A program made the translations under genes and the position numbers. DNA of 61,887 nucleotides, the filler included. It is 9 parts of 9 records of this genome, joined end to end, with 100 filler letters (N's around TTAATTAATTAA, not from the genome) between each part and the next. Parts side by side here need not be neighbours in the genome. Positions count along the whole stretch, not along the records: positions 37,997 to 44,951 come from SRR15195285_3188; 8 more parts are not named here. One strand, given 5' to 3'. Shown here piece by piece: positions 11,099-58,763 of this stretch (position 1 is its first letter; the number at the start of each line of letters is the position of its first letter). The notes beneath the pieces were generated by a model. That model was not told the origin of the DNA. It ran no database searches and saw only the letters and a program-made list of their open reading frames with translations.

Positions 11099-14000
11099 CT
11101 AATGAATAAACATGGCTGGCCCATCAATCGCAAGCAACCAGCCCTTTGCAGCGGGCACTTCGATTGTTGGCTTTGAGGCCGGTACATCGAGATCGGTTTG
11201 AAAGTTTTTGATCTCGCTAGCAGTGATTGTTGCAGAGACTGCCGACAATCCAAGCCTGGCCCAGTCGATGTTCAACGTGCAAGTTGTGTTGCCCGTGTTC
11301 GCCCAGCTAGCGACTGCTACCACAGCACGGGGCTTCTTCAACGTTGTCTCAGCGCCTGCCTCGCCGTACTGGGTCGCTTGGCTGCGCAAGTATACTGAGG
11401 CGAAGACTGCAGGCTGCGAACTGTTGCCTCCATGCTCAGTTATAGTTACAAGAGGCTTCGGGTCCCACCAACCCACCAATGCAACCCCGTCATCAACCAG
11501 TCCGAGCGAATCCCACGCTTTCCAGAGGTCTGGAGCTGGACGTGCGCCCTCAGCGAACAGCATGCCACGCCATAGATTTGGTGCTGTGAGTTGCTCAGCG
11601 TGTATCCCAAAGGGAATTCCCGACATTTCTACTAGCCACTGATCTGGTGGATAGTTGGGGGAGAACCCTTCGCCAAACCAGATCGAGTCGAGGAAAGCAA
11701 AGTGTGCCATGTAGATCAGGGCCGAGCAAGCATGTGGTGCGGAAGGGATCCCACAGTGGTACTTGTTGCAGGAGTGAAGGTCAAACAGACAGCCTGATCG
11801 GTGCTGGTCTACAGCTTTGCGCATCCGCATCATCGTCCCCCGGTCAAATGATAGCTCATCAAGGTATAAACCGTCTATAGCCGCAAACTTCGGATTATCT
11901 TGTGGCTGGGTGAGCCATTGCAGTCCCTGGATGTAGTAGTTCTCCCATCGAGTCAGACTTGTGTCGGCAATCGCTGCATCGGGGGATTCTCCACCACCAA
12001 GGCCGGTCGACCAGCGGACATGGTAGTCAGTTTGCAGATGTTCTTGAAGCCAGCTGGCGCCACCTCCACTCCCAGAATCAAAAAAGTGATCAATGGGAGT
12101 GGACAGCGCACGCAGCGTTGGCATTTCGTAACAACGATTCGAGAGCTCTCGGGTGGTATAGTAGATGCAAGTCGACTTCACTCCAAGAGACTTGGCCATA
12201 TTCGAAAAGTTGGCCTGCCTCTCCATAGCCATTGGGTTGAAAGCTGCAGCGCGCGCAACCAGCATGGATCAGGACACTCAGTGAAAGATGGAGTTGTCAA
12301 TATGGTGACGTACGATAATTGATGTACGGATTGAGATCCACGCCCTGGTGCAAATTGAGAATCTCGGTGCCCATGCCGGCAATCTCTGCTGGTCCCGCAT
12401 GTCCATTGTACCCGTATTGATAGTAACGATCACGGCGGAAGTGCCTCGGAGTATCCAGCTGCTTTGTTGGCGTGATCAGCAAATCAAAACGAAACATCAC
12501 TGGTGCATCCGGTGAGACGCTGACTATACCAGTCGAGGCTGTGATCTCTAAGCCACTGTTCGTTGGCAGAGCTGTGACCGCACCAGTTGCACCATCGCCA
12601 CCCCAAGATTTTGGCACAGTGGTGTCACTTTGCATGTGCAGCGGACTTTCCCAGTCAAACTCTGATCCCTTCAGCTTCAGCCGTAGCCCGGCGGTGCCCG
12701 ACCCAGCCCACAGCTGGTTCTCTCCACCCTTGTTTTGGCTCCAATGCCACTGAACACCCTCGGGATAACGCACTGAGCGATTGCCGCCAGTCTGAGCCAA
12801 CCCCATAAAGAAGGTTGAAGCAGCTTCTGGAATCGTCAGGGTCATCGTGGCATTTGTCAGTTGTTTCGTGTCGCTTTTCGTAGCCAACGAGAATGTCACG
12901 TCGACAAATCCGTCAAAGCTGACAACTACCGAACTGTTCAACTCGAGTGCACCATCGCTTGAACGAGTGACTGTTGCAATCGTCGCTGACATGTTGTCTT
13001 GCTGGACAACGCCTGGAGCACCGCCCGCGACCCATTCCACGCCCGGGACAGAGAATGAGATACCGTCAGCCACTACAGGCTGAGTGCGCACAGCAATGCT
13101 CTCGATCAGCTGCACCTTACTGCCCACAGTACCTGAGCCTACTTTGATCGTGCGTCCACCAGTGAGCGTCGCCATGGTACCCTCCAGCTCCAACGCATCG
13201 AATCCAGCAGTTATATTCCGATCGATGCCAACCCGTGAATCCAACCACCCAAGTCGCGCCATGCGCCACAAGTCATCCGCTCCAGCGTTGGGAATTGCCA
13301 CCCCTTGCACTACAAGGGAAACCTTGAGCTCTACTGCCTGCTGGCCCGCCTCACTCAAATGGACAGTTATCGTTCCAGTGTAGTTGCCGGCTGGCATTGT
13401 CGCTGGAACGTCCACGCCAAACCACAGCGCGCCAATGCCACGTGCTGGAATGGTTGTCGGCTGCTCAAACGTCGAGCCACGGTAGTCCACCCCACCAAGA
13501 TTGAAGCAACGGGTAGCGTTTGCTGATATAATGGCGTACTCCGATCGTAGGTCCGTCCAGCTCACATCCTTGGGAAGCAGTGTTAGGTTTACTGGGCCGC
13601 TGTTCCAGACACCGACTTGAAAAGCGAACAGCTCTCCCTTCGCTGCAGTGCCTGCGAGCAGCCTACTGGGACCACTATCAGCCCAGATCTGCGGGAGCTC
13701 ATCCAGCATCTTTATCTGGTTGGATCGATCCGTCGGAAAAAATTGCACTGGTTCCTTGTGCTTAGTCTGCATGGCGGCAACAGATGCCGCCGTAGCCACG
13801 ACTTCCATCGGCACGAAGCTTTGAAATGGCGTCTCGCTCTCAAGACTCACAGACAAGGCCTCAGGCAGATGTGGCCGAAAGCAGCCGTCGGAAAGGCAAG
13901 ACTGGCTCAGGTTGTGCTTTTGCAGCCATTCGGAGTCGGCGGTCTCAGTGTGTGCAGTGTAGTGTGCCTGTAGACTGAGGCCGGTCTGGCTGCCAGAGTC

Positions 14001-15150
14001 GGTGTATGGCATGTAATATAATGCGTATTGTGTTGCCATTGGGGCGGGCGGGGGAGGTGGAGGTGGTGGTGGTGGTGGGCCAGTTGGCGGGGCGTGACCA
14101 AACTGCACCTCCTTAATGTAGCTGTGCGACGGGGGTGTCTCGGCACTTCCACTGGTGCCACGACTCGAGATCTCCAAGCGGAAGTACCGAGACTTGCCTG
14201 CCGCACTTGGCCACCCATCAATCACGTTCGCGCCAGTTTCAGGATCAAGCACCAAAGAACCATTAAACAACGACTTCCAAGGCACTGTCGTGGCGCTGCG
14301 GCCGAGGAACGAGACATCCTTAGGGTTATGAATGGGCCACCATTGTGGGTCATCGCCCTTGGACACCGAATAAATGGCGAGTCTGTCGACAGGGGTTGTT
14401 GGCACAACCCCGAGATCCATCTCGAGGAACTCGACCCCGTCCTTGCCGGCTGCACCGTCCCAACCTTCGCTAGGGCGCCCAGGCGCATCGTTGAAAAGTA
14501 TTTTCCCATCAGCTGCTTTCCAGCAAGGCCAACTGTCCCCTTGACTACCACTGCAGGCTGTGACGATGCTCTTAGCCGCTGTGCCGTGGTTCACAATCCA
14601 GCCGTCCTTGTTAGGGCCTGGCGGAGCCGGCGGCACGCCACCCTCAGCCGTTGGCATGAACACGAACGTAAGTGCTTCGCTGTCCCGTATGCTCGGGCCG
14701 GCAGGAGATCGAACAACATTGCGCACCACATCCCCGGAGGATGCCACGGTGAGCACAGCCGCCGTTGTCGTCGTGTTCGGAACTGCCCGACGCTGCACAC
14801 AGTATAGAATAATGCGGCTTCAAGTCAATTGTGTGAGGAGAGATCGCCCGAGCGCTTCTCCCGTTCCCAAGTCGACTTGTGGGCGGGGGAAGAAAAGCTC
14901 GCGTTTTGCTCTCCAGTTCACATGAGTGGTACTACAAGTACGGGAGACGCACCTGCCAAGGGATGGTTGCGAATGCCGCTGCACCAGGTGTATGTGATTC
15001 GGGCAGCGTAATGATCGCCCGGTGCTGGCCCAGGCCGTGCACCCAGCTAAAATTTGCCATACCCGAGGGCATCAGTGTCGCATGCGCAGCGGCTCCCTCG
15101 GGGGCGGCGTGCGCCAGGAGCACCAGGGGGAAAGCCAACGAACACGCCAT
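11099..15150 (-). CDS. Secreted DUF6067-family (GH123-like) glycoside hydrolase with inserted F5/8 type C (CBM32-like) domain; exons 15150-14953, 14792-12314, 12243-11099
   Basis: Signal peptide MACSLAFPLVLLAHA; motifs LGQHRAII, IPWQ|RRA, YALYYMPY, LWRMARLGWLDS, NLHQGVDLNPYINY|PF, YYTTRELSNR, DGLYLDELSFDR and WLVEMSGIPFG. Introns 14793-14952 and 12244-12313 restore the conserved motifs. Confidence 0.85.
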
Positions 15151-15525: not shown

Positions 15526-15625
15526 NNNNNNNNNNNNNNNNNNNNNNNNNNNNNNNNNNNNNNNNNNNNTTAATTAATTAANNNNNNNNNNNNNNNNNNN
15601 NNNNNNNNNNNNNNNNNNNNNNNNN
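15526..15625. other. Artificial contig linker
   Basis: N44-TTAATTAATTAA-N44, with stops in all six frames. Confidence 0.99.
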
Positions 15626-21364: not shown

Positions 21365-21464
21365 NNNNNNNNNNNNNNNNNNNNNNNNNNNNNNNNNNNN
21401 NNNNNNNNTTAATTAATTAANNNNNNNNNNNNNNNNNNNNNNNNNNNNNNNNNNNNNNNNNNNN
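21365..21464. other. Artificial contig linker
   Basis: N44-TTAATTAATTAA-N44. Confidence 0.99.
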
Positions 21465-26249: not shown

Positions 26250-26349
26250 NNNNNNNNNNNNNNNNNNNNNNNNNNNNNNNNNNNNNNNNNNNNTTAATTA
26301 ATTAANNNNNNNNNNNNNNNNNNNNNNNNNNNNNNNNNNNNNNNNNNNN
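26250..26349. other. Artificial contig linker
   Basis: N44-TTAATTAATTAA-N44; the preceding contig ends in a (GGC)n run. Confidence 0.99.
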
Positions 26350-31691: not shown

Positions 31692-31791
31692 NNNNNNNNN
31701 NNNNNNNNNNNNNNNNNNNNNNNNNNNNNNNNNNNTTAATTAATTAANNNNNNNNNNNNNNNNNNNNNNNNNNNNNNNNNNNNNNNNNNNN
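31692..31791. other. Artificial contig linker
   Basis: N44-TTAATTAATTAA-N44. Confidence 0.99.
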
Positions 31792-37896: not shown

Positions 37897-37996
37897 NNNN
37901 NNNNNNNNNNNNNNNNNNNNNNNNNNNNNNNNNNNNNNNNTTAATTAATTAANNNNNNNNNNNNNNNNNNNNNNNNNNNNNNNNNNNNNNNNNNNN
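37897..37996. other. Artificial contig linker
   Basis: N44-TTAATTAATTAA-N44. Confidence 0.99.
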
Positions 37997-38234
37997 GAGA
38001 GAGACAGAGAGACAGAGAGAGAGAGACAGAGACAGAGAGACGGCTAGGCGAGACAAAGAGAGGCGCAAGTCTGGCCGGTGTGGCGCGCTGAGGCCAACCC
38101 TAGCTTTGAAATGGTAGACGGCTGCGCATGTGTGTCGGACTAACGCCACGCTATATTTACTTGCACACTGTAATTCACTATCCCCGCGGTACCGGCAACG
38201 CTTCGAAATGTTTACCCAAATTCGTCGGAAATGA

Positions 38235-39833
38235 TTAGCCGACGGCAACCTTGTGACGCATCAGCTCAGTCCTGTACTTATCTGGAACCCCAATCATCTC
38301 CATCTCTGCCAACTTCTTAGCTTTGATCGCCTCGATCTTCGCAGCCTCAACCTGCATGCGGGCTTCCAGCTTGCCTCCCTCCGACAGGAACTTCTGGCGC
38401 TGCTGCTTGCGCTCAACCTCGTTGCGCGCGATGGTCTCGCGTAACTCATCGGAGTGGTGGACGTTCGTGTATATCCGCTTCTCCATTTCCTCCCGATCGC
38501 GGGCATCTGCCTCAGCCTGCACCATCAGGATGCGCTCAAACTCGAGCTTCTCCAGCTGAGCCTGCTCGGCGAGCTTGCGCTCCTTCTCGCGCATCTGGAC
38601 GTTGCGGGCAATCTTCATCGCCTCCTGTTTCTCCTGCGCTCCCATAGCAGCGGCCAGCTCCTTCTCCCGCCACTCGCGCTCGGCAGCTTCCTGTGCTCGC
38701 TTGGCACGCAGGGCATCCTCCTCAGCCTTGGTGTCGGCCGCCTTCTCCTGCTGGGCACGCAGGCGCAGCGTCTCCTCCTCTTTCTCCGCCTTGATGCGGT
38801 CGGCCTCGGCACGCAGGCTACTCTCGCGCTCTTCCTTCTCGATCAGGTAAGCCAGCCGGCGCTGCTCCTCGGCCTCCTCCAGCAGCTTGTACTCGTGCTT
38901 CTTCTCGATTTGGCCCTCGTTGGCGCTGAGCACCTGCTCCAGGAGCTTCTGACCAGCAACCTTCTTCTCCTCAAGCGCCTTGCGGTCCTCTTCCTCCATC
39001 TTCTGGATGTGCTTCAGCATCATCTGCTGCTCGATGTCCTTCTGCTCCAACTCCAGCTCGCGCTGGGCCTCGCGGATCTTGATCTGGTCCACGATGACCA
39101 ACGCACCCTCGCGCCGCTCCTTCGCCTTGGCAGCCTCGACCTCCGACGCGCGCTGGATGGCCTTGACGCGCTCGATTTCCATGATCGTGTCCAACCGCCG
39201 CTCCTCTTCCTCCATCTCCTGCTGCATCTCGACCTTCTCGGAGATCTGCGCGTCGCGGATGGTGACGCACTTGGCGTACGCCATCATCTGGTTCATCGCC
39301 TTGACGTCGTCGAGCTCCTCGTCCAGCTTCTGCTTGGCCACAGACAGCGTCGCGTTCTCTTTCGCGATCTTGCGGTTTTCCGAGTCGGACTTCGGTGCGT
39401 TGGCCTTGCGGGCGGCCTCCGCCGCCAGCATCCGCTCCTTCCGCGCCTTGGCCTTGGCCTGCTGCTCGGCCTTCTGGTCGGCCATGGACTTTCGCGTCAT
39501 CGCCATCTCCTGCGCGGACACGATCGTGGCGGCCTGGCGCATACGTTCCAGGTCGCCCCCCGAGATGACGGCCGAGTCCGGCGCGTTGATCTGCGGGCGG
39601 TTGCCCAGCAGCTTTTCGATGGACTCCATGCTCACCACATCCGCCGCCGCAACCCCTCCCTTCCGCCCCCCGCCCATCGCATTCCCTTGGCGCTTGGCGG
39701 CGGACGGCGTGTTCGTGTTCCCGAACAGCGCCTCATCCACCTGCGAGGTGGGCGCCACCCGCCTGTACGAACTCCGGCTCATCCGCGAGCCCTTCGTCCC
39801 CCGGCTCCCCGCCGAGCTCGCCGCACGCGACAT
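38235..39833 (-). CDS. CFAP45: Cilia- and flagella-associated protein 45 (CCDC19), intronless
   Basis: SQVDEALFG; EELDDVKAMNQMMAYAKCVTIRDAQISEK...EEERRLDTIMEIER; DALRAKRAQEAAEREWREKE; C-terminal GVPDKYRTEL. Confidence 0.92.
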   Translation of the reverse strand: MSRAASSAGSRGTKGSRMSRSSYRRVAPTSQVDEALFGNTNTPSAAKRQGNAMGGGRKGGVAAADVVSMESIEKLLGNRPQINAPDSAVISGGDLERMRQAATIVSAQEMAMTRKSMADQKAEQQAKAKARKERMLAAEAARKANAPKSDSENRKIAKENATLSVAKQKLDEELDDVKAMNQMMAYAKCVTIRDAQISEKVEMQQEMEEEERRLDTIMEIERVKAIQRASEVEAAKAKERREGALVIVDQIKIREAQRELELEQKDIEQQMMLKHIQKMEEEDRKALEEKKVAGQKLLEQVLSANEGQIEKKHEYKLLEEAEEQRRLAYLIEKEERESSLRAEADRIKAEKEEETLRLRAQQEKAADTKAEEDALRAKRAQEAAEREWREKELAAAMGAQEKQEAMKIARNVQMREKERKLAEQAQLEKLEFERILMVQAEADARDREEMEKRIYTNVHHSDELRETIARNEVERKQQRQKFLSEGGKLEARMQVEAAKIEAIKAKKLAEMEMIGVPDKYRTELMRHKVAVG

Positions 39834-40360
39834 CCTCCCCACCCCCTGCAAGCCCCGATCACGGCTGCGACCACGACGACCACCGCGACCACGGCGACCT
39901 CTCTCCGCGCTGCGTAACGGCTCCTATCCAGCCGGCTCCCTGTGGCGGTTAGTTGGGCTCTGTGATTCTTACGGATCCCCGCGCTGTAACAGCTCTCACA
40001 AATCCCCCCGATTTCACCCTTTCCACGGTAGCACTGCCCGTTTCCGGCGATCCATCGCTGCCCGAGTTCTTCATAGTGGAATGACGGAGTGATTGTGGAT
40101 GGAAGGAGTGCGTTTGAGATGGTCAAATGGTGTCAGCATATTAATTAGTGATTTCTCATTACTTTCGACGGCGGGGTTCGGGAAACAGGCAGAACCGCGG
40201 ACCCGCAACGACCGGAGTTGGAATTCCTCCAGGATGACACCGAATTTCGGTAAATTCAAGTGATTTTCGAACAGAAATTCTGGCGAGGGATTGGATTCCT
40301 CTCAGGCAGTTGGACAAGTACCTACCGTGGTTGTGTGAATCTGGGGGTGGATTGGCTGGA

Positions 40361-40411
40361 GGGCTCATGGGAACGCTGCGTGTTCTGTTAAACGTTTCCC
40401 GGATACTAAAT
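40361..40411 (+). repeat. Copy 1 of an imperfect ~50-bp direct repeat
   Basis: GGGCTCATGGGAACGCTGCGTGTTCTGTTAAACGTTTCCCGGATACTAAAT; the same blocks recur in order at 44807-44921. Confidence 0.8.
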
Positions 40412-40473
40412 TGACTGGGGAATTTGAGTGGGGAATTTGAGTGGGGAATTTGACTGGGGAGAAAATTGAGTGG
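40411..40473 (+). repeat. 13-bp tandem repeat (TTGASTGGGGAAT) x4 plus partial
   Basis: Read directly from the sequence; four GGGG tracts separated by 9-nt loops. Confidence 0.9.
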
Positions 40474-41333: not shown

Positions 41334-44300
41334 CTAGTTGAAAAAAAAATATATGGCAAACATGATCCCCTCAGCCACGACCAAAAGCCAGAAGGAGCGC
41401 CACGCATATCTCAAATCTTCACCAAAGATTTGAGCGCAACAGCACAAGCCCACCACAATGTACGTCGCCATGGCGACCGCTGGCCAGAGCAGAATCAGAT
41501 ACCTCATGAAGAGGGGCATAGGATGTGCCCCGCAGGTGCAGCGCTCTTGCGCGCGACCATCGCAACCACAGCCATCACATCCACAGCCCCAGTTCCTTTG
41601 AAAATGTTGCCGATTGGCAAAGCTTCGCTCGTCATTGTGGACGAACGGCAACGTGACATTGCCACATCCACAACTCGCAACATCCTCGTTCAACACAGTG
41701 GTCATTGCGCTCCAGTTCTGCTCGAAGTCTTGATCGTCGTCGTACACGAAACCGTTAGGCTGCTGTGGCAGACCAATTTTCTCAATTATCACCGCGATGT
41801 ACTCATGGGGCTCACCTTCCATCCACATCCAATTGTCACTGGATTCGAAATAAATCTGCAAGAAGGTGTCCGCCACCTCAGCACAGCTTGCGTTCACCGA
41901 TTCGAACACGATCTGACTTCCAGGGGCGCAGCCGGCCACCGTCGTGTTCGCGAGCGCGCACGGGAGTTGCGCAATGCGCGTCAAGCTGCCTGCACACAGC
42001 GTTGAGGCGGCACTAGTATCATGACTAGTATGCGCCAAGTCAACACCAGTCTTTGCCGACACAACAACGTACAACCCATAGAACATTGTTGCGTTGAAGT
42101 AAGTGTCCGACACGTTGGTGCCAGCGCGATACGACGTAACCATCCGTACGATGAGCAGCGCGAGAAAGCACAAGCAGCCCAAGCTTGTGAAAATGTAGCC
42201 GGTGGCGAGCGGCGTTGGCATGTCTTGGGCTGCGATTCCTGCGCCCAGCGCAGCAAAACTGGACATGTCTCCAAAGAAAAGTACAGTTCCAATCAAACCC
42301 TGAACAACGGGGATAATACAAGTGATACACCCAGTATCGACTCCCAGGACAGCAAACCGGTATGCAGCGAACTCCATGCTGCAGCGGCTGGTGAAATATG
42401 AGACAATCTTGTCCGGTGCGAACACATACAGTGCCAGAAAACTGTACCCACTGAAGGGTGGATCCTCGTTGGTGCGTGCGGAAGCTATCACATCAACCAA
42501 TAGAAACGCCGGGGAGATCACCGCACAGACTACGGTCATCAACAAATACACGCCTTCCCGAGCTGCCACAACCATCCCGAATTTCCGCTGAGTACTGTTG
42601 AGGTCATCAAAACTCACCAGCAATACGACGAAATACGCGACTGGCTGGGCGACGTGCCACATGAAGAATCGCAGGACGGCCAGCTGCCGTGCTTCTTGCT
42701 CTGACAGATCGCTTAACTCAACGGCAATATCCCACAGTTGCGGCCACCGGTGGAAACGGATGATGTCGTGCATCGAGACACCTGGGGGCTGCAGTTCGAG
42801 TTGTTGCCACACGCGTGGCCGCCTCCATTCTTCAGAGAACGGCAGTGCCCGACCTGAAACCACTCCGAAGTCCTCAATAAAGACCCAGCTCCCACCTTGG
42901 GCACGCACGAGCGGCTTTGGGGGGGTGCACCTTACATCTCGGCCCACCACCACCCCGCGGATCCACAGTGAGTCTTCACAATCACGCACCCACACCGTTT
43001 GTAGCGTGCCTGGTGGCTGGTCTACGACAGGTTCCACAAGTCCACTTTGCAACGATCTGTTGCCAGGCTCAGTCCGGAGGAGGCCTGCAAACGCATCTGG
43101 CTCCGGCTCTTCCGGTTCTGGCTCCATCGGTGAAGGCTCCACTTGCGCCTCTGCAGCGGCAATTTCAGCCGTCACACCTAGCAAAGCCCGGCGATGCAGC
43201 ATCTTCAGCCCTGCTTGCGCAAGTTCCTCATCTGTAGCTGTTTCAAGTCGACTCAAAAGTCCGCGCTCGTGCAGTGCAGCCGAGTACTCCGTAAGTTGCA
43301 GCTGTTCCAGAATCGGATGAGACTGCGCACGGTCTCTCTCCGACTTGGAAGTGACTCCACCGGCCAGTGGATTGTGCTCCCCAACACTCTGCCGATCGCT
43401 CTTGGGCTCCGAATCCACGAGATGCATCAGCGGAAGAGCTTCCACAGCGGCAATGTGTGCAGTTTTGCGCTCATTGTGGCAGCCGAGAAACGGCTCGGCG
43501 AGGCAGTCGAACAACGCCTTGCAAGCTGTCTGGACAAATGTGACCAGCGCCGTTCGCCCAGTTGCCGGTCGATCACCGGAGAGGAACAACAGGAAGTTAT
43601 CTGAGTGTGCAACCCCTTCTTTCATCGCTGCCGTGTCACGGACTGGCATCTCGTTATCGTACCACACTGTGTAGGGCCTTCCGTCTGGCTTCTGTTTCTG
43701 CCGCAGCAGGAAGCATAGTTGCTTTGCCTGATCCCCGGCACTTGCTTGCCTACGCACGCGTCACCACCACTTGTACTGAAATTCTCTTGCACAGTGTGCA
43801 CACTATGACTGTATAGACGCGACGCACGAGGTAGAGTGGCGAAGTGCTTACCCGTGCGAAATGAAGAAATCCCAGCGGCCTGGTGCATTTCGCGGATTCT
43901 GCGCCGGTGGTGCTCCACTACCACCTGGGGCGCGCGCCTTCTCCAGAATTCGAGACACCATCGCGTCCGTCTCATGTACGTCGCGGCGATAAGTGATCAT
44001 ATCGATGTGGAGAAGGAAAGCCCAGTCTGTGTTGCCGTACTTTTCCCACGCTAGCGGGACGTCGAAGTAGCCCTGCTTCCGCACGTCGTCCTCGTACACA
44101 GTGAAGATACGGTGCATGGCATTTTTATGGCGTTCCTTCGCCTCCCGGATCTCCATCTGCACGAACGGTCGGTCGAGGCATGTGCGGAATCTTGGCACTC
44201 TCACCATGGACAGGTCACCCACCGATCGGCAGAAGTATGGAATCGCCACGCCAATTAGAAGCAGGACGGCGTGCCCCGTGGAGATGCCCGTGTCCGCGTT

Positions 44301-44753
44301 GCCATTCGCGGGCGCACCCTCTTCGACGGCAGGTGAAGATATTGCATTGCTCTCGCAGGCGAGCGAACTTGCCACGCATGTATCACAGTCCCGCTGGTCC
44401 AGCAGGAAGGTCGCGCAGCACTCTGTGCAGGTGCACCCGCGCGAGTTGGGATTACACACAGCCGGTGCGCAGAGCTCTTGAACACAGCCTCGACATGCCT
44501 AACGCACGCACGTGCCCATGTTAGCTCAGCTGAGATAACGCTGCAGGGAAAGCCAGCCAGTGAGCCAGGTGACAGCGCGTATGCGACCTACTGATGTGCT
44601 ATAGTCCTTGCAGCACTCGCCACACACGGTACACCGTCCGCTCTCGGCCGCCGCACACACGCCTTCACCCGATTGGAGTCGTCGCACCTGTCGTCCCTCC
44701 GCGAAAGTCGCGCACACGATAACCTGAAAGATCACGCCCTGATACCATGCCAT
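41334..44753 (-). CDS. Membrane receptor-like protein: signal peptide, Cys-rich repeats, TM, permuted TIR, SAM, SH3-like barrel, polytopic membrane domain; exons 44753-44592, 44498-43852, 43749-41334
   Basis: Introns 44499-44591 and 43750-43851 join three ORFs in frame. TIR motifs RPFVQMEIREA and WDFFISHG|Q...VWYD...MKEGVAHSDNFLLFLSG; SAM ILEQLQLTEYSAAL...TDEELAQAGLKMLHRRALL; many hydrophobic helices in the C-terminal half. Confidence 0.8.
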
Positions 44754-44951: not shown

Positions 44952-45051
44952 NNNNNNNNNNNNNNNNNNNNNNNNNNNNNNNNNNNNNNNNNNNNTTAAT
45001 TAATTAANNNNNNNNNNNNNNNNNNNNNNNNNNNNNNNNNNNNNNNNNNNN
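44952..45051. other. Artificial contig linker
   Basis: N44-TTAATTAATTAA-N44. Confidence 0.99.
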
Positions 45052-49702: not shown

Positions 49703-49802
49703 NNNNNNNNNNNNNNNNNNNNNNNNNNNNNNNNNNNNNNNNNNNNTTAATTAATTAANNNNNNNNNNNNNNNNNNNNNNNNNNNNNNNNNNNNNNNNNN
49801 NN
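49703..49802. other. Artificial contig linker
   Basis: N44-TTAATTAATTAA-N44. Confidence 0.99.
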
Positions 49803-58663: not shown

Positions 58664-58763
58664 NNNNNNNNNNNNNNNNNNNNNNNNNNNNNNNNNNNNN
58701 NNNNNNNTTAATTAATTAANNNNNNNNNNNNNNNNNNNNNNNNNNNNNNNNNNNNNNNNNNNN
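58664..58763. other. Artificial contig linker
   Basis: N44-TTAATTAATTAA-N44, flanked by (GAG)n and poly-C. Confidence 0.99.

Follow-up and report, generated by a model that had tools for sequence, protein, structure and literature searches.

A predicted membrane protein with a circularly permuted TIR domain in DNA from a marine-protist-like eukaryote

Introduction

TIR domains have a central part in the immunity and cell death of animals, plants, and bacteria. In the canonical fold, strands (b) and helices (a) follow one another in the order bA-aA-bB-aB-bC-aC-bD-aD-bE-aE. The subject of this report is a gene on the minus strand, at positions 41334..44753, of a stretch of DNA 61,887 nucleotides (nt) long, which is called the window throughout. 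Judged from its sequence, the locus holds one intact gene, encoding a membrane protein of 1074 residues in a marine-protist-like eukaryote. Its TIR domain does not follow the canonical order, the two halves being exchanged, and the predicted chain continues into a multi-pass module that is referred to below as the membrane core.

In Toll-like and IL-1 receptors one membrane helix links an ectodomain to a cytosolic TIR domain, and the predicted protein shares this order, its own TIR domain being likewise placed in the cytosol by the reasoning given below. It differs from these receptors in its ectodomain of ~100 residues built from Cys repeats, in its permuted TIR domain with a catalytic-type Glu, and in the multi-pass module that comes after. 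With SARM1 and TIR-1 the similarity lies in the TIR domain itself: the bA-bC segment aligns to SARM1 and TIR-1 chains at expectation values (E) of 0.002-0.008, and the aC-bD segment aligns to WVHKE..IIPIF of TIR-1, Glu included. The catalytic residue of SARM1 is E642. In the window protein, however, the TIR halves are swapped, no ARM repeats were found, and the chain is predicted to be membrane-embedded.

Proteins of the haptophyte Gephyrocapsa huxleyi have been described in which an extracellular region or several transmembrane helices precede an intracellular TIR domain with a conserved Glu, and the expression of the TIR proteins of this alga shifts during giant-virus infection (PMC12489294). 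The window protein resembles them in its apparent origin from a unicellular marine eukaryote and in its combination of transmembrane segments with a Glu-bearing TIR domain, whereas neither a permutation nor a C-terminal membrane module is mentioned in the passages on these proteins (PMC12489294). The G. huxleyi TIR lengths in its Table S9 run from 76 to 128 residues (PMC12489294), and the short ones might include half-length matches of the permuted type.

Bacterial Thoeris systems also pair a TIR domain with a membrane-spanning part. The ThsA protein of type II Thoeris is described as having two transmembrane helices and a Macro domain (bioRxiv 10.1101/2024.01.03.573942), and further Thoeris effectors with transmembrane segments have been reported (bioRxiv 10.64898/2025.12.03.692087). 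If the membrane core were an effector, the logic would be the same. In these accounts the Thoeris components are separate proteins with a canonical TIR domain and a ligand-binding domain (in a Macro, SLOG, or SLATT context), whereas the window gene specifies one chain, and no sensor domain was identified in its product, unlike the defined ligand-binding domains reported for Thoeris.

Two further systems from eukaryotes bear on the comparison. Cnidarian connexin-like channels have been found fused to TIR or NACHT domains (bioRxiv 10.64898/2026.06.13.731801), which sets a eukaryotic precedent for joining a TIR domain to a channel-forming part within a single protein. Those membrane domains are connexin-like and reported as proven channels, whereas the core of the window protein has no detectable similarity to named families. 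The TeTIR domains of TEP1/NWD proteins are TIR domains of 200-350 residues, enlarged by insertions but canonical in order (bioRxiv 10.64898/2026.09.21.753143). They too are a divergent form of the TIR domain, recently recognized, in which a catalytic Glu is present and STAND domains occur as partners, but they are enlarged rather than permuted, and permutation goes unmentioned in what that source says of them (bioRxiv 10.64898/2026.09.21.753143).

No description of a natural circular permutation of the TIR fold was found in the literature searched; in the papers examined that speak of both TIR domains and permutation, the permutation concerns other proteins. A highly conserved permuted TIR domain with its Glu intact would offer a test of which features of assembly and catalysis need chain connectivity. 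In addition, both protein families discussed below appear to be widespread in marine protist data and would represent a largely unexplored signaling or defense repertoire of the plankton.

A single gene of three exons

When the open reading frames (ORFs) of the minus strand are read, the ATG falls at 44753 and the TAG stop at 41336-41334. The spliced frame of 3222 nt, or 1074 codons, has 0 internal stops, and its three exons are separated by two GT..AG introns:

41334..44753, minus strand: whole gene, three exons, 1074 codons plus TAG stop
44592..44753, minus strand: exon 1, residues 1-54, with the signal-peptide-like start and the beginning of Cys repeat 1
44499..44591, minus strand: intron 1, 93 nt, GTAGGT..TAG, phase 0
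43852..44498, minus strand: exon 2, with the remainder of the Cys repeats, transmembrane segment 1 (TM1), the first TIR half (hA), and strand bA
43750..43851, minus strand: intron 2, 102 nt, GTAAGC..TAG, phase 2, three in-frame stops
41334..43749, minus strand: exon 3 plus stop, coding part 43749-41337

The G+C content at third codon positions is 0.61-0.67 across all three exons. Exon 3 is a single 807-codon ORF that covers the second TIR half, a helical stretch, a linker, a putative small barrel, and the membrane module.

Contigs of ~5-9 kb, connected by eight identical joints of 100 nt, make up the window, and gene order across the joints is therefore not evidence of synteny. All three exons lie within the single contig piece 37997-44951. 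Because the ATG is only 198 nt from the end of this piece, an extra upstream exon is possible, although both the hydrophobic character of the N-terminus and comparison with the N-termini of relatives speak for a real start codon.

Relatives of the encoded protein were collected by an exhaustive HMMER search with a query that ran from exon 2 through intron 2 into exon 3, X standing for each of the three stops. At E<=0.001 the search gave 547 proteins, of which 212 reached E<=1e-10 and 23 reached E<=1e-30. Module counts given below refer to the 150 matches listed of the 547, with 149 relatives compared, and this sample is biased, since the query held both modules. The matches listed form two independent modules, namely a cytosolic domain composed of both TIR halves (hA and hB) and the membrane core.

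Both exon junctions are supported because the domains that they rebuild are unbroken in relatives. Intron 1 interrupts Cys repeat 1, and the form rebuilt at the exon 1/exon 2 junction (C-x-C-x2-CC-...-C-x2-C-...-C) matches repeat 2 as well as the unbroken repeats of P0007, P0104, P0023, and further relatives. The 34 columns derived from intron 2 hold gaps only in 52 of the 54 relatives of the alignment, and a single profile match covers both TIR halves, and hence the exon 2/exon 3 junction, in 56/89 proteins. Moreover, three relatives (P0007, P0008, and P0010) have a membrane helix, a permuted TIR domain, and a membrane core in one predicted protein, with Cys repeats additionally present in P0007 and P0010. 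One chain from all three exons is well supported by these sequence comparisons. The original prediction, made by a model from the letters alone, had proposed a single gene here: its start and end prove exact in the ORF reading, and its single-gene claim agrees with the one ORF of exon 3, the rebuilt domains, and the shared architecture of the three relatives.

Homology evidence for a permuted TIR domain

The domain that follows TM1 is laid out in this way:

43569..44192, minus strand: TIR domain in circular permutation, residues 157-330, interrupted by intron 2, in the order aC-bD-aD-bE-aE, linker, bA-aA-bB-aB-bC

The half that would be C-terminal in an ordinary TIR domain comes first (hA, ~113 residues) and is separated by a conserved linker of 20-25 residues from the second half (hB, ~60 residues). 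Among the 149 relatives listed, hA was found in 83, hB in 74, and both in 70, and many relatives terminate directly after hB. The Pfam TIR_2 profile matches 31/44 permuted-type relatives scanned, with 13/44 reaching the 28-bit cut-off. In 30 of the 31 matching relatives the alignment to the profile opens at position 1-2, right at the end of hA; it then stops at or before position 67 of 122 in 24 of these 30, at 72-76 in five, and at 85 in one. The one remaining match, in P0026, belongs to a canonical TIR domain that stands apart at the N-terminus of that protein. When PDB sequences were searched with the family profile at E<=10, all but one of the 25 sequences returned bore the name TIR, SARM1, TIR-1, or TcpB. 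These matches, the best being 7uxr_A (E 4.9e-4), cover bA-bC, and in the C. elegans TIR-1 chain 8p2m_A a second stretch pairs the beginning of hA (profile positions 30-51) with WVHKE..IIPIF, which lies after bC there.

The identity of the first half is supported by sister proteins that have kept the canonical order. In 24/28 such proteins found with P0076, an hA-like part begins no more than 15 residues after bA-bC, and it scores i-E<0.01 in 19 of those 24. Pfam TIR_2 matches 16/18 canonical sisters scanned, and there the match extends to profile position 75-99, into the hA-like part; a profile of these sisters matched one TIR in the PDB, at E 0.073. In an hhalign comparison, hA (42 proteins) was set against the stretch of 125 residues that follows bC in 26 canonical sisters, picked without reference to an hA match, and the two aligned over 94 columns with a probability of 96.8% (E 2.4e-10). 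Both controls, hA against the canonical N-half and hA against the reversed C-half, gave a probability of 0.1%. Three sisters (P0182, P0183, and P0186) are tandem arrays in the order hB-hA-hB-hA, whose middle stretch, a first half followed by a second half, already resembles the permuted domain, and such canonical arrays look like a duplication intermediate.

A FastTree phylogeny from profile-ordered columns separates 57 permuted sequences (the window included) from 19 canonical ones in a clean split with support of 0.995; the tree is unrooted and the two sets come from different searches, such that it speaks for two groups and for no direction of change. PADLOC gave weak ThsB matches on relatives only (E 1e-4 to 0.012), at swapped model positions that, though not significant, are consistent with the permutation. 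The NCBIfam profile search gave no match, and one metagenome locus (L001) holds only a piece of the second half, with an in-frame stop. Taken together, homology supports both a TIR origin of each half and the permutation, and the permuted TIR domain of the original prediction is supported by the sister proteins, the hhalign result, and the element order of the structural model described next, but not by a fold search, which gave no TIR match.

Structural model and putative active site

An AlphaFold2 model was made for residues 150-475, with the intron letters included. Its mean predicted local distance difference test score (pLDDT) is 74.7 and its predicted template modeling score is 0.64. Confidence is concentrated in the TIR part, where 15 of 16 ten-residue blocks (model residues 11-120 and 161-210) have a pLDDT of 93-98 and one has 86. 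The first half consists of helix 16-28, strand 36-41, helices 52-59 and 65-69, strand 72-74, and helix 79-93. After the linker come strand 114-120, a low-confidence intron part, helix 160-172, strand 183-185, helix 194-202, and strand 204-211. Thus, five strands alternate with helices in the model (H-E-H-H-E-H, linker, E-(intron)-H-E-H-E), and the modeled element order is aC-bD-aD-bE-aE followed by bA-aA-bB-aB-bC.

Two features in and directly after this domain stand out:

44151..44153, minus strand: codon GAG of Glu170, the catalytic-type Glu in helix aC, motif VQxE
43497..43559, minus strand: extra Cys-bearing helix after bC, residues 334-354 (model helix 219-239)

The Glu of VQxE is kept in 71/72 relatives and in the window. 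Glu170 aligns with the Glu of WVHKE in the TIR-1 chain 8p2m_A and with the conserved Glu of the canonical sisters. About 38 positions of the permuted TIR domain are at least 85% conserved, and the window retains them. Several positions are shared across the two groups: R29, E35, A39, E51, R87, and M95 of hA, together with fourteen positions of hB, are at least 80% conserved in permuted and canonical proteins alike.

The permutation cut is the loop between bC and aC, beside the Glu helix. Because the cut falls there, and given the known TIR fold, both chain ends (TM1 upstream and the Cys-bearing helix downstream) would be located at the active-site face. The extra helix has block means of 80, 74, and 77 in pLDDT and contains three Cys in the window protein. 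In the core-linked relatives P0007, P0008, P0010, and P0028 a Cys-rich stretch likewise comes straight after bC, and this stretch may be a lipid-attachment site.

Regions flanking the TIR domain

The remaining parts of the predicted chain, from the N-terminus onward, are as follows:

44694..44753, minus strand: signal-peptide-like N-terminus, residues 1-20, read from sequence
44355..44657, minus strand: two Cys-rich repeats, residues 33-102, intron 1 within
44226..44282, minus strand: TM1, ~residues 127-145, from hydropathy and relatives, ending in the family motif P-[YF]-x-x-R
43143..43316, minus strand: helical stretch, residues 415-472, called SAM in the original prediction and not confirmed as such
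43095..43130, minus strand: Pro/Glu linker, residues 477-488, frequent in relatives
42804..43007, minus strand: 'VWVRD...W.RG' module, residues 518-585, putative small barrel
42132..42785, minus strand: polytopic membrane core, residues 592-809, with W-H..Q-P, R-E..Y, P..L.., Y...P.K, D, and G-Y invariant or nearly so
41514..42047, minus strand: gene-specific loop, ~residues 838-1015, with 12 Cys and 4 of 6 N-x-S/T sequons
41337..41513, minus strand: two C-terminal hydrophobic helices, from hydropathy

The N-terminal hydrophobic run occupies residues 7-18 of exon 1, and one strongly hydrophobic segment, TM1, follows the Cys repeats. The signal-like start, the acidic residues before TM1, and the Arg-rich residues after it together suggest that the TIR domain faces the cytosol. 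No Pfam family was matched by the Cys-repeat ectodomain, leucine-rich repeat (LRR) and immunoglobulin (Ig) families included. In two relatives (P0068 and P0089) the cassette of Cys repeats and TM1 is fused straight to the membrane core with no TIR domain between, and the Cys repeat also occurs in the core proteins P0081, P0104, P0123, P0120, P0082, and P0105.

The helical stretch offers little evidence of a SAM domain. Pfam SAM_TNK reaches E 0.13 (12.8 bits against a cut-off of 25), and no relatives of residues 415-472 were found in the search. A weak link connects the stretch to residues 150-195 of P0018 (E 0.0013 among 204 proteins), a part that itself scores E 0.077 for SAM_1. The model shows two long helices (pLDDT 59-70) and no five-helix bundle. 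The 'VWVRD...W.RG' module was found in 34 proteins compared, each also with a membrane core, and it lies N-terminal to the core in 33/47 core proteins having at least 120 upstream residues; both counts include near-duplicate cluster members and come from the query-biased set. The module, read in the original prediction as an SH3/Tudor-like barrel, has no Pfam match in the window protein, and relative P0050 gives a weak Tudor_KDM3B match (E 0.0069).

In the membrane core, P135 and P179 are invariant (numbering of the 570-residue alignment query), and W130, H131, Q134, Y138, Q153, G157, R163, E164, Y167, L182, Y207, P211, D260, G283, and Y284 are nearly so. The loop that follows includes a 15-nt unit repeated 2.1 times (41557-41588), which encodes a repeated CGCDG motif, and neither the loop nor the last two helices have an aligning counterpart among the relatives compared. 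The sequons of this region fall at ~residues 815-967. An ESM Atlas search with the relative P0059 gave only EF-hand signals, and the Atlas model was poor (pLDDT 0.44).

Much of the domain layout in the original prediction can be recognized in these regions. The signal-peptide-like start, the two Cys-rich repeats (one split by intron 1), the single strong hydrophobic segment after them, the PEPE linker (residues 477-488), the conserved 'VWVRD...W.RG' module, and the run of hydrophobic helices with a second Cys-containing loop are all present. The proposed SAM domain is not confirmed, with its sub-threshold SAM_TNK score, its lack of relatives, and its two long helices in place of a five-helix bundle. 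Nor is the SARM1 layout shown: the SAM domain is unconfirmed and no ARM repeats were found, and even with a SAM domain the order TIR-then-SAM would be the reverse of that in SARM1. The likeness to the Toll/IL-1 receptor layout survives in part. The order ectodomain, transmembrane segment, TIR domain stands, but the resemblance is superficial, given that the cassette joins the core without a TIR domain in P0068 and P0089. In place of an LRR or Ig ectodomain and a C-terminal canonical TIR domain, the protein has Cys repeats and a permuted TIR domain after which ~740 residues follow.

Families, distribution, and domain shuffling

The relatives looked up come from ENA, Logan, JGI environmental assemblies, and EukProt Picozoa single-cell genomes (COSAG01, COSAG02, COSAG06, and SAG22), and a few are also in NCBI. 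The permuted TIR domain occurs in these proteins with Pkinase, Roc/COR, STAND NTPase plus ankyrin, PARP, FYVE, SAM, RhoGEF, KH, and ubiquitin-like domains; for SAM, the Pfam match of P0083 is above the cut-off and those of P0053 and P0079 are below it. The membrane core is found with the permuted TIR domain, with a canonical TIR domain (P0050 and P0076), and with WWE (P0036), EF-hand, DUF4116, kinase plus ankyrin, and Rab-type GTPase (P0002) domains. Permuted TIR domain and core occur together in P0002, P0007, P0008, P0010, P0017, P0028, and P0038. These comparisons of sequence show the permuted TIR domain and the core to be two large families without names, drawn from marine environmental data and often shuffled.

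Several domains related to nicotinamide adenine dinucleotide (NAD) or ADP-ribose recur among these proteins, with a PARP catalytic domain next to the permuted TIR domain in P0083 and P0132 and a WWE domain next to the core in P0036. Pattern scans of viral contigs revealed no relative of the permuted TIR domain or of the core, and pattern scans of prokaryote genomes revealed no relative of the permuted TIR domain. One prokaryote candidate for the core (L002) was rejected when its ORF was read: it is not hydrophobic, has YVVAPEK in common with the core, and resembles a periplasmic binding protein.

Possible function and alternative explanations

The reading preferred here, to which a probability of roughly 55% is assigned, is that of a membrane protein whose permuted cytosolic TIR domain is equipped for catalysis and would cleave NAD+ upon proximity, in the service of conflict or stress signaling. 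The chain would run from a disulfide-rich ectodomain through TM1, the cytosolic permuted TIR domain, the helical stretch, the acidic Pro/Glu linker, and the small module to the multi-pass core. Like SARM1 and the TIR domains of plants and bacteria, the permuted domain would be an NAD+-consuming enzyme that becomes active once molecules are brought together, and the position of the chain ends at the active-site face would keep that face near the membrane. The protein would then act in a conflict or stress-signaling pathway, with the core as its output or anchor. An immune, antiviral, cell-death, or membrane-effector role can be envisaged. In a sample that is query-biased, the core is fused repeatedly, to both types of TIR domain as well as to WWE, which hints at a link to ADP-ribose chemistry.

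A bolder version is unlikely. Here the protein would be a single-chain eukaryotic counterpart of the logic that combines a TIR domain with a membrane effector, and the permutation would couple catalysis to the membrane. Clustering via the ectodomain or the core would switch on the permuted TIR domain, the conserved small module beside the core would sense the NAD-derived product in cis, whereupon the core would open or breach the membrane. If this were true, the permutation, with both ends at the active-site face, would amount to a device for coupling catalysis to the membrane.

A number of results weigh against the preferred reading of a catalytic, membrane-bound TIR protein. The window's own pieces fall below every Pfam cut-off (best TIR_2 match E 0.073, 14 bits against 28). 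Among PDB sequences, phmmer with exon 2 and with the first 250 residues of exon 3 found none at E<=10, nor did the profile of the first half alone. The structural model carries 34 intron-derived residues, and Foldseek against the PDB gave none at E<=0.001, with a best E of 0.64 and no TIR among the 43 matches listed. Sequential aligners are expected to handle a permuted domain with a foreign insert poorly; the VIA-align match list was taken up by the helical tail, and the TIR part was barely covered. For the core, no Pfam family was matched, the barrel-plus-core profile found only ENT1 in the PDB at chance level (E 0.92), and the ESM Atlas search returned nothing usable. Finally, none of the relatives looked up has a functional name, and all are from environmental-type data.

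The protein can be read equally well as a polytopic membrane protein with a TIR insert in a cytosolic loop, because the cassette of Cys repeats and TM1 joins the core without a TIR domain. On this account, which is somewhat unlikely but the main competitor, Cys-repeat cap, TM1, and core would form an ordinary transporter, channel, or membrane enzyme, and the permuted TIR domain would be a regulatory or NAD-sensing insert rather than part of an immune receptor. The cassette in P0068 and P0089 and the Cys repeat of further core proteins fit such a protein, as do the Rab, EF-hand, and DUF4116 domains of other core proteins. Conserved polar and charged residues inside hydrophobic segments are a property of transport proteins and membrane enzymes, and the hydrophobic segments of the core hold invariant or nearly invariant residues of this kind (H, Q, R-E, D, K, and D). 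However, the core is also fused to the permuted TIR domain in seven relatives, to a canonical TIR domain in P0050 and P0076, and to WWE in P0036, counts that are query-biased, and the permuted TIR domain has retained its catalytic-type Glu. That Glu likewise speaks against a non-enzymatic scaffold, in which the permuted TIR domain would recruit TIR proteins of its own family as in animal TLR/MyD88 signaling. A large family combined with kinases and STAND NTPases is typical of adaptor networks, but the Glu at the SARM1/TIR-1 catalytic position is kept in 71/72 relatives, and ~38 positions conserved to at least 85% would be more than a pure interaction surface usually needs; the scaffold is regarded as decidedly unlikely. 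Very improbable, lastly, is an artefact of the gene model, whether a chimeric contig, separate transcripts, or an unexpressed pseudogene. The window does consist of short joined contigs, and the ATG does lie close to a piece end (198 nt), but the three exons share one contig piece, 1074 codons run without an internal stop, the junctions rebuild unbroken domains, near-invariant residues are kept, and the architecture recurs in P0007, P0008, and P0010.

Other features of the window

Each of the eight joints has the composition 44 N, TTAATTAATTAA, 44 N:

15526-15625, 21365-21464, 26250-26349, 31692-31791: joints
37897-37996, 44952-45051, 49703-49802, 58664-58763: joints, continued

Other ORFs of the window are ordinary eukaryotic ones, with matches to WD40, HEAT, GH123-like, calpain, AAA ATPase, C2-kinase, ankyrin, and TPH. 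A scan of the window found no tRNA and no Rfam family. Two adjacent minus-strand ORFs, at 11099-12265 and 12297-14798, match GH123_N positions 641-968 and 72-632 of 969, respectively, and are probably parts of a single glycoside hydrolase gene, interrupted by a short intron or a frame change.

The sole other gene on contig piece 37997-44951 is a TPH (trichohyalin-plectin-homology) ORF at 38235-39851 on the minus strand. The region 38001-40000 has a strong base skew (GC skew -0.18, AT skew -0.24). A short tandem repeat of GAGAGACA type stands at the start of this contig piece (37997-38046), and a 13-nt unit is present in approximately four copies in the intergenic sequence at 40408-40459.

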